Assembly (NCBI GenBank): GCA_951406725.2
Contig: OX597825.1
Span: 72,726,001 to 72,790,000, forward strand
Reading direction: 5' to 3'
DNA length: 64,000 nt
Origin: Octopus vulgaris
Taxonomy: Eukaryota
Part shown: piece by piece, positions 8,386-55,084 of the stretch
Numbering within the stretch: position 1 is the stretch's first letter
Layout: every line of letters starts with the position of its first letter
The notes under the pieces: generated by a model
Told to the model about the DNA's origin: nothing
The model's input: the letters and a program-made list of their open reading frames with translations, nothing else
The model's database searches: none
Made by a program: the position numbers and the translations under genes

Positions 8386-8434
8386 CTTAATAGTGACGTC
8401 AGTTTCAGCAATTTCCACTGCCTCATCGGTTAAG
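8386..8434 (-). ncRNA. Type-I hammerhead ribozyme motif (CCGAUGA variant)
   Basis: Minus strand reads CUUAA CCGAUGA GGCAGU ggaa AUUGCU GAA ACUGACGUCACU A UUAAG. Stem I is CUUAA/UUAAG, stem II is 6 bp, and stem III is near-palindromic with one mismatch. Confidence 0.65.
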
Positions 8435-13740: not shown

Positions 13741-15120
13741 GATAAAGTGCCAGTGTTAACAACAAACAAGATGAGGAGAAATACTCATCAAATGTAAATA
13801 ATGTACATAATTCCTCATCTCTCAAATATAGAACTGTACTGCATGCATGTTCAGCAAAAGCAGCATGAAACAGATGGTGACAGCACTTCAGTTCCTATCT
13901 GCATGAGATTCTTCCTCATCCACCATGACCATGAGGCACATCTAACTCTGAAAATCAAGCAACATGACAAAAGAGTCCATGACGACACTCCTAAATCATA
14001 CAAGTAACAGGACACGTCCCAGTTTTATGAGTAAGATCGTTGTTTGGCTGGAGGCACAATGGCCCAGTGGTTAGGGCTGCAGACTCGCTGTCGGAGGATC
14101 GCGGTTTCGAATCCCAGACCGGGCGTTGTGTGTGTTTATTGAGTGAAAACACCTAGAGCTCCACAAGGCTCCGGCAGGGGGTGGTGGTGACCCCTGTTGT
14201 ACTCTTTCACCCCAACTTTCTCTCACTCTTTCTTCCTGTTTCTTGAGAAACACTGCATTGAACTGGCATCCCGTCCAGCTGGGGAGGGGGGAACACATAC
14301 GCCACAGAAATTGGGAAACCGGGCCCATGAGCCTGGCTAGGCTTGAAAAAGGCGCATAATAATAAAATAGTTGGTTGGCTACAAAATCAGACAATGGAAT
14401 CCAATAATCTTGCAGAGCGTCCTGTTACCAAAGGATTTCAGGCAGCTCTTACAGAATTATTTCCCTTTATAGATAGCTCTGAGGATCACATCTCACTCAC
14501 ACATATACATTTCATTTGGCCTGGTTATCTTATGACAGGAAACCGTTCCTAACACCAACGACTTTACAAAGTGTACTGGATGAATTTGCGTCATCATCAC
14601 TACAGGCTTCTTGCCTCCTTTCCATCTTGGCAGAGCATGAATTAAGGGACTTTCTTTATACTAAGTTGTCTTGATTCAACCAAGACAGAGAATGGTGGAG
14701 AGGCTGATTAGATGAGTTTGGATGTAAATGGAAGAGGTTACGCAGAGTAAATAGTTGTAGGTGATGGGGTAATGTAAGAGAGACAAAGATAGGCAGCTTC
14801 ATGAGTGAATGTAACAGTGTATTTGTATGTATGCGTGTGTGTGGGCATGTGAATGCATGTGTGTGTTTCTGAGTGTAAGCATGTGAATGCGTGTGTGTGT
14901 GTGTGTGCATACAGGATGAAGTAATGGAAGAGAGACAAAGATAGGTAGCTTCGTCTGTGTCTGTGTGTGTCAGTATTTTTGTGTGAGTGTTTATATGTGC
15001 ATATGTATTAGTGTGTGCATGTATATATATTTGTGTGTGTAGAGGATGAAGTAATGGAAGATAGGCAGCTTCATCTGTGTCAATGTGTGTCACTGTGTAT
15101 GTTTATATATGCATATGTCT

Positions 15121-20049: not shown

Positions 20050-20665
20050 AATAGGTGGTGAGCTGGCAGAAGTGTTAGCATGCTGGGCGAAATGCTTAGT
20101 GGTATTTCGTCTGTCTTTACGTTCTGAGTTCAAATTCTACTGAGGTCGATTTTGCCTTTCGTCCTTTTAGGGTCGATAAATTAAGTACCAGTTACATACT
20201 GGAGTCAATGTAATCGACTTAATCCCTTTGTCTGTCCTTGTTTGTCCCCTCTATGTTTAGCCCCTTGTGGGTAGTAAAGAAATAAGTACTTATTCTGCCG
20301 CTACGTTCTGAGTTCAAATTCCGCCGAGGTTGACTTTGCCTTTCATCCTTTCGGGGTTGATAAATTAAGTACCAGTTACGCACTGGGGTTGATGTAATCG
20401 ACTTAATCTGTGTGTCTGTCCTTGTTTGTCCCCTCTATGTTTAGCCCCTTGTGGGCAATAAAGAAATAAGAAACGTTAGTATGCTCGGCAAAAGGCTTAG
20501 TGGTATTTCATCTGTCTTTACATTCTGAGTTCAAATTCCATTGAGGTCGACTTTGTCTTTCATCCTTTTGGGGTCGATAAATTAAGTACCAGTTGCATAC
20601 TGAGGTCAATCTAATCGACTGGCCTCCTCCCCAAAAATTTCGGGCCTTATGCCTAGAGTAGAAAA
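20050..20665 (+). mobile_element. Meta-domain-like SINE, three tandem bodies
   Basis: The central domain is repeated three times. Confidence 0.7.
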
Positions 20666-21986: not shown

Positions 21987-22032
21987 AACACAACGTTTCG
22001 GCTGATATACCCTCCAGCCTTCTTCAGGTGTC
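21987..22032 (-). ncRNA. Minimal type-I hammerhead ribozyme motif (Penelope pLTR type), apparently intact
   Basis: Minus strand reads GACAC CUGAAGA A GGCUG gaggguauau CAGCC GAA ACGU U GUGUU. Stem I is GACAC/GUGUU, the core is conserved, stem II is 5 bp, stem III is the palindrome ACGU, and the cleavage triplet is GUU. Confidence 0.75.
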
Positions 22033-22880: not shown

Positions 22881-24257
22881 GTCATTGTTGTTGTTGTTCT
22901 TCAGGTCACTGCTTGGAATTGAACTCAGAATCTTGAAGAAGGCTGGAGGTTATATCAGCCAAAATGTTGTGTTAACAACAAACAAGATGAGGACAGATAC
23001 CCATCGAATGTAAATAATGTAAATAATGTAGGTTTCGGTTTGCTTATATCCTTGTAACTTAGCAGTTCAGTAAAAAGAGACTAACAGAATAAGTACCAGA
23101 TTTATTCAACAAAATCCTACAAGGCAGTGTCCCAGCTTGGGCACAGTCCAATGATTGAAACGAGTAAAAGTTATCATCATTTAATATCCACTTCCCATGC
23201 TGGCATGGGTTGGACAATTTGACAGTAACTGGTAAGGCCAGGGGGCCACACCAGTCTCCATGTATGTTCTGGTATGGTTTCCCCGACTGGATGCCCTTCC
23301 TGATGCCAACCACTTCACAGAATGTGGTGGGTGCTTTTATGTGGTATTAGCATCGGTGCTTTTAACATGGCACCGGTCATAAACAATTGGCCCCTTGCAC
23401 TTTATATCATCACTATCATCATCTAACATCCATTGTCCATGCTGGTGTGTGTTGGACGATTTGACCAGAGTTGGTAAGTTAGGCAGCTGCTATAGACACC
23501 AGTCTGATTTGGCATGGTTTCACTAATATATGTATACATACATATATATGTGTGTGTGTGTGTGTGTGTACACACATATATATATATACATACATATATA
23601 CATACATATATATATATACACATATATACATATATATCCATATACATATATACATATATACATATACACATACATATATACATATACATATATATAGAAT
23701 AAAACTTTATATATAAAGAATGTGAAATACACGAAGTGACGAACATGGAAAACAGATAAGACATTCGAATCCTTCAAACTTCAGTCAGAAACCGAATCAT
23801 CATGGCAAATTTCGGCTGTTTAATTCTGAGATTTGCTCCAACTCGGCCAGCCCCAAGGAAAAACTAAGCTGTGGGCATTAGATTTCTTGGTATCATTTTA
23901 GATAAAGGGTAAAAAATTTATTAATTTAATAATTAACAAATTTCACCAAGTAGCTTCGGTATAGAAAAAAAAACATTATGGGTAAAAACTTATACAAATA
24001 GCTTTTTTATAATTATAAATATAATTAAGGGTTTAGCAAAAAGTTCCTTCACCACATACCGAAAATTTAGAAATAGCAGTCAAAAACTGCTAATTCTTTT
24101 AACTACAATAAAACTCCACAGACCACAATACTCGTAACTCACATAAGCAAAAAGAAGAAAAACATAACGAGATCAACCAGTCTTACGATTAATCATGTAC
24201 ATGTTTCTGGATTAGAGTTTTAAAATTCATTTTCTTCAACAGCATGATATTTCAAGT

Positions 24258-34883: not shown

Positions 34884-35104
34884 TATGAGGAGCTGCTGAA
34901 AGGTTCCTGGCATTGGGTTAATGAAAATACCGGAGGATCTGTTAATTATGATTTTATTGAATGTATCCCCTTCTCAGATTCACACACTTATTGCAGCAGT
35001 CCTTCAGTTTTTCTAAGCCCTGTAAAAGAACTTGGAAGATTGGATCTCCAACCAGGCCTTTCACGATACCCTTGAAACCAGGAACTTTTCAGCACCACCC
35101 CATA
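34884..35104. mobile_element. Tc1/mariner-type MITE
   Basis: TIRs tatgaggagctgctgaaaggttcctgg / ccaggaacttttcagcaccaccccata with TA ends. A truncated related left end lies at ~34722-34800. Confidence 0.65.
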
Positions 35105-35182
35105 CACAACTGAAAAGATACATAGAAACAATATTTCCAAATAAAGATATGTAAAACAAAAACAAGAGCAAGTAATTCATAC

Positions 35183-36626
35183 CTTCTGGAATGAGCTTTG
35201 GTGTATCCGCAAGGACCATATCCTGGTTTGGAAGTTCCTGGTTCTCATCTGGACCAGTCAATGGTAGATTCGGCTTGATGTCCACTGTATCTTCGTTCTC
35301 TGGAATCGGACCAACTGGGACGGTTTTATCGGATATCTCACAAGCAGATGTATCAGTAGCGTCTAACGACCCCTCAGTCGTGTCGTCATTGCCAAGCATG
35401 GATGAAGTTGTTACATCGGGACTGGCTGACAAAGAACTACGCTCCATGTTAAGTGCACTGCAGGCGCCGACCACCAAGGGTCGGTGTGAAGCCATTTTTG
35501 TTGGATGGTGTTCCAAACCACCGTTTGCAAGACCATACATAGTCAACACTTCGTTCATTGTACTTTCGGCATACTCTTTCAACAATACGTTTCGACCATT
35601 TCTTTGCTGCTGTCTCTGCCGCTGCTGCTGCTGATGATGATTATGATGATGCTGGTGTTGATGCTGTTGATGATGAGAATGATGATGGTGATGATGATGA
35701 TGATGATGTGGGGGATGGTGATGATCATGATCATGATGATGATGATGTTGATATTGTTGTTTCTGCTGCTGCTGCTGTTGCTGCTGTTGAGGAGTGGACA
35801 CAGGTGGTATTATTTGGTTTGCTGGTCCCTTATGCACTAGTGTTAGGGGCCCAGGCGCAACAGCAGGAGCCGACTGACAAGGCACATCAGAACATTGCGA
35901 TTCGGTGCAAGATGAAAACGACGACGAAGAAGCGGAGGAAGAATTCGAAGAAGAATTTTCAAGAATGTTCGTGGACGGAGAATGTCTGTGTTCCATATTG
36001 CTGTCTTTGGATTTGTTCACAGTTAAATCTAAGGGCACAAACTCACTAAAACTACTACTATTACTCCTTAAATTAGGACTCCCATCTCTTTTATCACAGG
36101 TTTCCGTGCTGGCTTTATGCAAACGACACTCGGTTAACACTGAGTCGTCATTTACAAAATCACTGCTTTCATTGGGAGGCAAAAAACTCTGATCGTTACA
36201 GTACTCCTGGGTTTGGCTGAAACAAGAGTATTCTTCTTGTAGAGGTGTGCTATAACGTTCATTCTTCGATTCCTCATCCATTTCTCTGCCATCAGCCCTC
36301 AGCCAGTCTTCATTTTCTTCTTCTTTCTCGTCCTTCTCTCTGTCAGATATGTCCTGACCCTCAGAAATTTTCCACAAATGGAATATGTTACAAGGCCTCC
36401 TGGATTTTCTTCGTTTGCGTTGAGTACTGCAAGACCAGTGCTGTGTAGTACAATCTTCGGCAGAGTATCTACTCCCATTCCCTGGAGTGTTGTTATTATT
36501 CCTCGGCGCATTGTCCAAATTTTTGCCAGCAATGGTTTTACTTGATACAGGAATGGCATTGCTACAGCTGGTCTTAAGTTTGGCACAGATAGCATCGATC
36601 CTTCTATGGGCTGAAGAATTGTTCAT
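35183..36626 (-). CDS. CASZ1: Castor/CASZ1-like zinc-finger transcription factor, first coding exon (481 codons + 1 nt)
   Basis: This is the only long, mostly non-repetitive ORF in the window. N-terminal RRIDAICAKLK resembles vertebrate CASZ1 KLNAICAKL, and EYAESTMNEVLTMYG resembles CASZ1 DYAASTMTEFLGMFG (both recalled, not aligned by tool). It also has a basic RKRRKSRRP segment and a PLDLT motif. The acceptor ttttgttttactttcAG places the exon start at 36651, with an in-frame TGA 24 nt before the ATG. The donor is GAAG|GTATGA at 35183/35182 (phase 1). Confidence 0.85.
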
Positions 36627-36714
36627 GTTTTTAATCTCTGTGTGGTTTCAGCTGAAAGTAAAACAAAAAATAAAAGATTATGAAAATATAAATTAGGACA
36701 AAAATGTACAAAAA

Positions 36715-44165: not shown

Positions 44166-44844
44166 TGCACACATGATGGGTTTCCACACTGCTTCTATCT
44201 ACCAAGTTCACTCACAAGGCATTGGTAAACCTGGAGGTTTAACAGAAGACACTTTCCCAATATGCCCACAAAAAGGAACCTGGGATTGAACCCAAAACAA
44301 TATGATTGCAAAGTGAGCTCCAAAACCACACAACTATACTTTACTCCTTAGTTTCATTTCTCTTATAACATGGAATACTCCAGAAAACAGCTTCATCTGG
44401 AAAACATTCACCATTTTTCAACATTTTTAAAAATATTTAATACCTTGATTTTTTTTTCTGTGTCACTTATTAATTTCTATCGTTAAGTTTCCTTGCATAT
44501 TTTCGTTTAGTTTCACATAATTAATTGTATACATTACCATATTATGTAGATTATTTATGTCAAGAAGCCATTGTTGTATTTTTGCAAATATAATAATATA
44601 TTTAACAATAAAAGGAATTACCTACATACCTAGCAAGCTCTCTCTATCTGTTTGTTTAAGTATCTTATATCAAGTCTTATGGCAACACTGCCTTTATTCG
44701 CCAATTACTGCTAATTATCACTTACTACTTTCTAGGTTTATCACCAAAAATGGGCATTTATACATGTACATATATGTAGATATATATATATATATATATA
44801 TAATGATAAATCTCAGAGCGAGTTATAAACAGTAGTGGTAACAC

Positions 44845-45221
44845 ATCGTGACGCATATTTGCCATTTGAATATGGCTAACCCCTAAGGGTGGATGCTACT
44901 GTAGTTTGTAGCCCCAGGAAGATATCTCCTCCAGCTGGCTATAGACACACCATCTGTGTCCTCTCAGTATTTGTGAAGGGAAGTCATCCTCCCCGTCTTC
45001 AACTCATGATACACACGGACCCGATGAAAGGTAAACACCTTGAAACTTGGGTCCGTGTGTATCATGAGTTGAAGACGGAGAGGATGACTTCCCTTCACAA
45101 ATACTGAGAAAACACAGAAAGTGTGTCTATAGGCAGCTGGAGGAGATATCTTCCTGGGGCTACAAACTACAGTAGCATCCACCCTTAGGGTTAGCCATAT
45201 TCAAATGGCAAATATGCGTCA

Positions 45222-45225
<4 letters not shown>
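44845..45225. repeat. Long inverted repeat (~178-bp arms) with a hammerhead-like core in the 26-nt loop
   Basis: 44845-45022 is a near-perfect reverse complement of 45049-45225, also visible as mirror ORFs [11 protein letters not shown] on both strands. The apex reads CCGATGA AAGGT aaac ACCTT GAAAC. Confidence 0.9.
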
Positions 45226-45258
<33 letters not shown>

Positions 45259-45368
45259 TATGTATAAGTGTGTGTGTATATGTGTATGTGTGTATTTGTG
45301 TGTGTGTATATATACACACATATATACATACATATATACATATATAAGTATATGTATATATGTGTGTG

Positions 45369-45441
<73 letters not shown>

Positions 45442-50209: not shown

Positions 50210-50789
50210 CATCATAATAATAATAATAATTTAGTGGTGGTGGTAGCAATCGCTTTCATCTGACACAGACAAAATGGCCAAGTGGTTAAGAAGTTTGTTT
50301 TGTAGTCATTCATGTCCCAGGTTCAAATCTAATGCGTGTCCTTCTTTCATGATTGCCTTGTCCTCAGGTCGACCATGAATCTTATAACTAAGAAGCCCAT
50401 TAATGAGATTGGGTCGGGCCTATATTTAATTAGTGGGGAAGAAGGGGGTCAGGTTCGTCACATGGTTTGGAAGCCAGAGGATTGTGTTAAGAGAGTATAT
50501 GTCTACAGAAGGCGGCGAGCTGGCAGAAACGTTAGCACGTATTGTGAAATGCTTAGCGGTATTTCGTCTGGCGCTACATTCTGAGTTCAAATCCCACCGA
50601 GGTCGACGTTGCCTTTCATCCTTTTGGGGTCGATTAAATAAGTACCAGTTACGCACTGGGTTAATATAATTGACTTAATCCGTTTGTCTGTCTTTGTTTG
50701 TCCCCTCTGTGTTTAGCCCCTTTGGGTAATAAATAAATAGGTATTTCATCTGCCGGTATGTTCAGGGTTCAAATTCATATATATATATA

Positions 50790-51077
50790 TATATATGAAT
50801 AAATAAATGAATGGAGTTGAACGAAGATGTTAACAAAATTCCTTTACTCTCGACATATGTTTCGAAGACAACATGGTTTCATTCCAAAGGAATAAACGGT
50901 GCATCTTGCACCATTTTACACTGAACTGCTAAAACCTGTTAAAACCTGAACTGCGGTGCATCTTGCACCATTTATTCCTTTGGAATGAAACCATGTTGTC
51001 TTCGAAACATATGTCGAGAGTAAAGGAATTTTGTTAACATCTTCGTTCAACTCCATTCATTTATTTATTCATATATA
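50790..51077. repeat. Inverted repeat (~110-bp arms) of a pLTR-like 3' segment carrying half a hammerhead
   Basis: 50790-50903 pairs with 50964-51077. Each arm carries gtcttc GAA ACATATGT C gagagt (GAAA, palindromic stem III, GUC triplet). Confidence 0.85.
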
Positions 51078-51430
51078 ACACACAAATTTCTGCACATGAA
51101 CCCGGAGTTTCTACCCTTGGACAGGTCGCTTCAACCATGTTTCTGACATGAATTTGCTACCCTGGTATCGGTTCATCGATTTTCCATGTTGACGGTAAAC
51201 ATAGGATAATTCATTCACCTATATGTTTCTTTATTGCCCACAAGGGGCTAAACATAGAGGGGACAAACAAGGACAGACAAACGGATTAAGACGATTACAT
51301 CGACCCCAGTGCTTAACTGGTACTTAATTTATCGACCCCGAAAGGATGAAAAGCAAAGTCGACCTCGGCAGAATTTGAACTCAGAACGTAGCGGCAGACA
51401 AAATACGGCTACGCATTTCACCTATATATA

Positions 51431-51466
<36 letters not shown>

Positions 51467-51777
51467 TGTATGTATGCATGTATGTATAAATATAATCAAA
51501 TATTTGTTCTTGCAATAGAAACATCAAAAATGTGTAGTTTACGATACATGGTTGTTCCATAAAGATAAAGTATTTAGTGTCTAAATTCAGTAGTTAATTT
51601 GGTGGTGGGCAGTTTAGCTTAATGGTAAAGCACTTAGCTGGAGTCTTTGAGGGATATGTGTTCGAGTCACATGGCCAGTTGTTGACAAATTTTTCCACCT
51701 TGTATGGGTAATTTACCCAGGATTTCTGCTGTTCTAACGGCAACTCTGCATTCGAAAAATATCATCGTTTTATTTGT

Positions 51778-54673: not shown

Positions 54674-55084
54674 GAGGGTGGCGAGCTGGCAGAATCGTTA
54701 GCATGTCGGGCGAAATGCTTAGTGGTATTTCGTCTGCCGTTACGTTCTGAGTTAAAATTCTGCTGAGGTCGACTTTGCTTTTCATCCTTTCGGGGTCGAT
54801 TAAATAAGTACCAGTTATGCACTGGGGTCAATATAATCAACTTAATCCATTTGTCTGTCCTTGTTTGTCCTCTCTGTGTTTAGCCCCTTGTGGGTAGTAA
54901 AGAAATAGGTATTTCGTCTGTCGTTACGTTCTGAGTTCAAATTCCGCTGAGGTCGACTTTGCCTTTCATCCTTTCAGGGTCGATTAAACAAGTACCAGTT
55001 ATGCACTGGGGTCGATGTAATTGACTTAAAAACCCTTTGTTTGTCACCTCTATTTTAGCCCCCTGTGGGCAATAAAGAATTAAG
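54674..55084 (+). mobile_element. Meta-domain-like SINE dimer with 13-bp target-site duplication
   Basis: ttagccatggaga occurs at 54661-54673 and 55085-55097. Confidence 0.75.

Follow-up and report, generated by a model that had tools for sequence, protein, structure and literature searches.

Insertions of EN+ Penelope-like elements have a recognizable architecture, in which an inverted, 5′-truncated copy lies adjacent to the element, a tail of 30–40 bp is present at one end only and the target is biased towards microsatellites (Craig et al. 2021, PMC8557442). Head-to-head junctions of such elements can carry palindromes, and their pLTRs include the first codons of the ORF; the Adineta pLTR holds the first 12 codons, or 22 when the tail is counted, and self-priming has been proposed for the head-to-head junctions of that genus (Arkhipova et al. 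2013, PMC3846280). The protein of PAc, a Poseidon element of the lizard Anolis carolinensis, cuts and extends both target strands, prefers AT-rich DNA and accepts unprocessed RNA as its dominant substrate, and its reverse transcription starts at two sites between which the tail lies (Frangieh et al. 2024, PMC11167929). The type I hammerheads of metazoan Penelope-like elements and non-LTR retrozymes share a short self-complementary helix III (PMC4209133; PMC7229834; bioRxiv 10.64898/2026.07.22.740005), and in the minimal hammerheads of Penelope-like elements pair 10.1–11.1 is typically G-C (PMC4209133). In Octopus vulgaris, 31 recently active Penelope-like families have been reported (PMC13282606).

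Against this background, we analysed a hairpin in a 64-kb stretch of O. vulgaris DNA (hereafter, the window). We consider it, with a probability of about 80%, to be a single insertion of a high-copy Penelope-like retroelement into (TA)n, consisting of two short 3′-end copies placed head to head, the join of which probably removed the front of the hammerhead and left a ribozyme predicted not to cut. The left arm (44845–45022, minus strand, 178 nt) is an inverted, 5′-truncated copy of the 3′ end of the element and extends 5 nt past the predicted cleavage site on the upstream side, whereas the right arm (45049–45225, plus strand, 177 nt) is a direct copy of the same end; the polarity of both copies, and hence their head-to-head arrangement with the inverted copy 5′-truncated, was assigned from the plus-strand hammerhead. 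The arms differ by six substitutions and one 1-nt gap, and the 26-nt spacer between them (45023–45048) contains most of the hammerhead core. Folded as RNA, the segment 44800–45280 reaches −365 kcal/mol (z = −40.9), a stability matched by none of 100 shuffles. Arm alignment and fold energy both confirm the hairpin of ~380 nt with near-perfect arms of ~178 bp that had been proposed in the original prediction, in which a 42-nt extension on the left had been overlooked. This tail (44803–44844, minus strand) belongs to the family sequence; it prolongs the inverted copy, whereas the direct copy lacks it. Both flanks are (TA)n runs, the left one (44780–44802), the apparent insertion target, being separated from the arm by the 42 non-repetitive bases of the tail, and the right one (45226–45255) passing into a longer TA/TG microsatellite. 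No target-site duplication is readable inside these (TA)n flanks, and the arm has no second copy within the window.

The link to Penelope-like elements that had been suggested earlier is supported by four structural features: the inverted 5′-truncated copy is joined head to head with the direct one, a tail is present at one end only, albeit slightly longer (42 nt) than the published 30–40, a hammerhead lies in the pLTR, as a remnant at this locus and with a canonical core and stem I in one contig, and the target is AT-rich microsatellite DNA, with (TA)n on both sides. A further likeness to the EN+ units is a possible set of first ORF codons running into the tail. This candidate ORF start (44803–44865, minus strand), recognized by translation, begins with an ATG at 44865 (45205 in the right arm) and comprises 7 codons in the arm and 14 in the tail, 21 altogether, remaining open through the tail end; a 31-aa candidate stretch, a short query, matched nothing in Pfam or among 1.84 billion representatives. 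By contrast with complete EN+ units, the locus has no ORF body and both of its copies are truncated inside the hammerhead. No RT or GIY-YIG ORF is present at the locus, and none was evident by eye in the ORF list of the window. With PAc, the locus shares two ends separated by a tail and an AT-rich target, and its structure fits the copying of uncleaved RNA with extension from both nicked strands; however, in the published account of PAc the ORF begins within the hammerhead (PMC11167929), whereas at our locus the frame opened by the ATG of GATGA has only 27 codons, and the candidate ORF start follows the cut site at a distance of ~150 nt. By structure the locus therefore behaves as a Penelope-type insertion, and since no RT or endonuclease was linked to the family we assign it to no named clade. 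The insertion architecture is known for Penelope-like elements, and the family is a member of which the papers searched hold no description; it may already be catalogued.

That the arm and the tail belong to a dispersed repeat is evident from sequencing runs, 20 of the 24 listed containing part of the stretch and together representing four organisms and 10 studies. Four runs were compared over positions 44790–45095 at 85% likeness: X1 (organism A), X5 (organism C), X6 (organism D) and X11 (organism A), the last of which is only presumed to be an RNA run; the contigs show neither expression nor strand. The numbers of matching contigs were 3765, 3287, 1355 and 104 in the four runs, and the summed depth exceeded 10^6 at its peak in X1 and X5, compared with ~25–85 for single long pieces; summed contig depth marks a high-copy repeat and is not a copy number. 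Arm and tail belong to a single high-copy family, the two ends of which are separated by 42 nt and which abounds in at least three organisms. Contigs cross from tail to arm in X1 (record 1, 44802–44907), X11 (record 9, 44802–44898) and X5 (record 17, 44815–44930), and, among the 24 of 418 loose ends listed, those that pile up at 44802 have mixed flanks, while those at 44845/44848 enter TA repeats in all three DNA-type runs. Consistently, the depth of the tail is 0.51–0.60 of that of the first 33 nt of the arm in all four runs. Depth at 44900–44910 is 21–35 times that of the loop, so that the family thins from its 3′ end towards the hammerhead, a gradient expected of 5′ truncation to which subfamily divergence also contributes. 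Further loose ends at 44892–44896 and 44919 (X1, X5 and X11; among the same 24 of 418) belong to related repeats that have the middle of the arm with a different 3′ end, pointing to sister families. Exact matches were absent for the apex 24-mer in metagenome and viral contigs and for an arm 21-mer in metagenome, viral and prokaryote genome contigs.

The apex of the hairpin carries the remnant of a type I hammerhead (45021–45053, plus strand). Its letters read as given in the original prediction: CCGATGA (45021–45027, with G5 to A9 at 45023–45027) is followed by a 5-bp stem II (45028–45041) with the loop AAAC, GAAA (45042–45045) and GTC (45051–45053), with a short stem III at 45045–45052 and a predicted cut after C 45053. 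The hammerhead origin of these letters is supported by the canonical core in a family contig and by the rarity of the relaxed core-plus-stem-II pattern, which mononucleotide shuffling of the 31-nt apex produced in 3 of 200,000 trials. The core is indeed at the apex, but not wholly in the loop: the CC of CCGATGA (45021–45022), which supplies positions 3 and 4, is the end of the inverted arm and the complement of the GG in GGGTC, and GGGTC as far as the cleavage site is also inside an arm, so that the core straddles the arm ends. As in the metazoan Penelope-like hammerheads and retrozymes, stem III is short and, with G-U pairs included, complementary to itself (−4.2 kcal/mol for the self-duplex), resembling in this respect the hammerheads that depend on dimers (PMC4209133); the locus differs from this group in that U4 is replaced by C (CCGAUGA, not CUGANGA), helix I is out of register and the arrangement is not tandem, and its pair 10.1–11.1 is A-U rather than the typical G-C. 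A non-LTR retrozyme was considered and rejected for this locus, which has a single inverted pair, no head-to-tail tandem and no second copy in the window (compare PMC7229834 and bioRxiv 10.64898/2026.07.22.740005).

Stem II, GAAA and the NUH triplet (GUC) conform to what a hammerhead requires, whereas stem I does not. The arms had been envisaged as a hugely extended stem I, a notion contradicted by their being out of register by 3 nt: no pair forms flush with the core at the GUC site, 15 pairs form only with three extra unpaired bases before C3, and the active fold lies +20 kcal/mol above the plain hairpin. Nor did the hammerhead models of Rfam, the check that had been proposed, recover the motif, giving no match over the whole window at the gathering threshold and none among the 73 matches obtained at E ≤ 10 over 44700–45400, all of which are miRNA or low-complexity hits below their gathering scores. 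We predict that the ribozyme of this locus is dead, the canonical CUGAUGA and the flush stem I having probably been lost at the inversion join, in agreement with the earlier suspicion that this copy may be inactive; U4C reduces hammerhead activity in vitro (PMC3088659). In a transcript of the locus, the cleavage site is predicted to be buried in a long duplex.

The family itself is likely to have a real hammerhead. In a contig of X6, found among the 24 of 418 loose ends listed, the sequence before 45023 is replaced by 25 different letters that end in CACACG followed by CT, restoring the canonical CUGAUGA together with a 6-bp stem I flush with CGTGTG at 45054–45059; two further 5-bp blocks, judged by eye, pair with 45061–45071. 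The native form thus appears to have a helix I of the canonical 6 bp and the CUGANGA/GAAA/GUC core of the metazoan group, a specific fit provided by one contig from another organism (D). Judging from this contig, the locus is likely to have lost the 5′ strand of stem I and U4 at the inversion join. Family pieces on the left arm reach 45024 (X1 record 8 and X11 record 15, among the 32 of 8548 pieces listed), which implies that those copies have TCGG, not TTGG, in loop III and that a GA microhomology of 2 nt (45023–45024) would overlap at the join.

The observed starting point for any account of the insertion is a pair of near-identical, opposite copies, one of which is longer by 42 nt, set between (TA)n runs, and a family whose contigs have two ends 42 nt apart and thin from the 3′ end towards the hammerhead. 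By analogy with PAc, a GIY-YIG endonuclease would nick AT-rich DNA on both strands, and reverse transcription would start at two adjacent sites on the RNA, the stretch between which becomes the tail. Two outward-facing 3′ ends, one of them tailed, would follow because a PAc-type protein extends both strands from two RNA sites. Copying would then enter the structured hammerhead of an uncleaved RNA and halt, one strand ending at G5 and the other in loop III, and GA/TC microhomology would join the two; these could be a pair of cDNAs, each primed from one end of the target, or parts of a single cDNA that folded back. An uncleaved template is likely because the inverted arm has 5 nt upstream of the cut site and the direct copy has everything from G5 onwards. 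Thus, the original prediction was right in placing the join near the ribozyme, both breakpoints falling within its 33 nt, but the fold-back could hardly have begun at the cleavage site, given those 5 upstream nucleotides and the presence of most of the core in the direct copy, nor at stem I, which would have preserved C3–U4 and the register, as in the family contig described above. The arms are identical at 16 of 17 polymorphic places, and one of five substitutions hits a family variant (P = 0.17–0.31); these alleles do not discriminate between one template and two, and a two-template origin gains no support from them.

Three other explanations of the hairpin have to be weighed against this reading. 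The original prediction had raised a non-autonomous, hammerhead-capped element, that is, a hairpin with a fixed apex moving as a unit, at least as a subfamily, and had asked whether other copies share the inversion point. Both breakpoints of the locus do fall within the ribozyme, and one of seven joints found in the contigs, 44929–45042, is present in two runs from different organisms. Yet in five of the seven, which have depths of 23–113, the direct hammerhead part is joined to the inverted arm at 44884 (twice), 44897, 44929 or 44941, places other than the apex of our locus (of the remaining two, one skips 32 nt and the other changes strand within the arm). Their sides measure only 22–25 nt (the caution level being 30), they were found at 85% likeness, and in four of the five the intervening letters are unknown; their direct-side landing points (45023 twice, 45028, and 45042 twice) are not counted as clustering, a landing at 45023–45042 being partly built in by a reference with the direct orientation only from 45023. 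Depth points the same way: the ratio of the junction bin, which includes some spill-over from the arm ends, to the summed adjacent arm bins is 0.13, 0.16, 0.09 and 0.30 in the four runs, and that of the loop bin to the arm bins beside the apex is 0.11–0.26, as against the 0.5 expected for a fixed apex. None of the 32 pieces listed out of 8548 (the eight longest per run) crosses the apex, and the pieces end at 45020–45024; palindromes assemble poorly from short reads, so apex-spanning contigs could have been missed. With no second copy in the 64-kb window and a ribozyme out of register, we regard a mobile hairpin with a fixed apex, even as a minority subfamily, as very improbable, and the joints elsewhere do not support a shared inversion point.

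Alternatively, the native stem I could first have folded back into a hairpin that kept its ribozyme intact, after which quasi-palindrome correction, a template switch from one arm to the other, could have added a few bases to the left arm at the expense of C3–U4. Such a history would require only a small change, and the native stem I would have offered a natural inverted repeat of ~16 bp (by eye) at the very spot, but it invokes two events where one is enough, and no variant listed beyond 44991 has an intact-apex allele, in a table to which rare alleles are invisible; we consider it improbable. Finally, fold-back MITEs at TA are short, almost fully palindromic, TA-flanked and non-coding, and the locus resembles them in its shortness, its nearly whole-length palindrome and the TA on both sides. 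If the locus were an ordinary MITE with a spacer that is hammerhead-like by chance, the absence of an Rfam hammerhead match would be natural. The asymmetric ends, with a family extension of 42 nt on one side only, the variable joins, the retro-type 3′-to-5′ truncation gradient, the family contig with canonical core and stem I and the scarcity of the core pattern among shuffles all speak against it, and we take the MITE reading as largely refuted and scarcely credible.

The preferred reading, a single Penelope-like insertion joined within the ribozyme, invites a more speculative extension that we hold to be unlikely on present evidence, namely, that the hammerhead is a preferred hinge of Penelope inversions, both copies in this family stalling in the ribozyme and joining through the self-complementarity of the core CUGA and the loop III UCGG. 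If true, the motif would shape insertions as a folding signal with no need of cleavage, and it could seed hairpin subfamilies sharing an apex. The papers searched contain no account of joins inside a hammerhead.

Other repeats in the window also carry hammerhead-like motifs. A second repeat family with a minimal hammerhead is represented by four copies that are 83–89% alike (22027, minus strand; 36772, 22934–23030 and 13753–13835, plus strand). The copy at 22027 has CTGAAGA with a bulged A, a stem II closed by G-C, GAAAC-GTT with a palindromic ACGT and an in-register stem I of 5 bp, while the copy at 13753 starts exactly at the predicted cleavage site and the match at 22934 starts at the core. 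A hammerhead-like core at 8429 (minus strand; CCGATGA, a 6-bp stem II and GAAAC-TGAC-GTC, without a stem I in register) has a single copy in the window except for microsatellite matches. An unrelated fold-back at 50790–51077, beside a (TA)n run, has arms of 123 nt that are 97% complementary and 42 nt apart; its join carries a direct repeat of 20 nt, its arms contain GAAAC-ATAT-GTC, which resembles the 3′ half of a hammerhead, and it is flanked by inverted copies of another repeat (50544–50722 and 51242–51421). A 335-nt dispersed repeat has three copies that are 88–90% alike (2603–2938, 20053–20388 and 54677–55011), and a weak Rfam tRNA match (51608–51677, plus strand; 33.3 bits) with a broken acceptor stem is possibly a SINE head or a pseudogene. 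A 528-aa ORF with His/Gln/Ser-rich tracts (35061–36647, minus strand) is probably a host exon; no Pfam family scored over the cut-off, and its Atlas matches were weak (<0.9).

As it stands, the locus is genomic debris of a known shape, and its value is modest: it is a natural record of Penelope retrotransposition that fits the copying of uncleaved RNA from two start sites, as observed in vitro for the lizard element. Given the abundance of the family in at least three organisms, a map of its joins would bear on whether inversions prefer the hammerhead, a motif whose function in Penelope-like elements is described as still open (PMC8557442). If transcribed, the octopus hairpin, with its 178-bp duplex, would lend itself to A-to-I editing or to processing into small RNAs.
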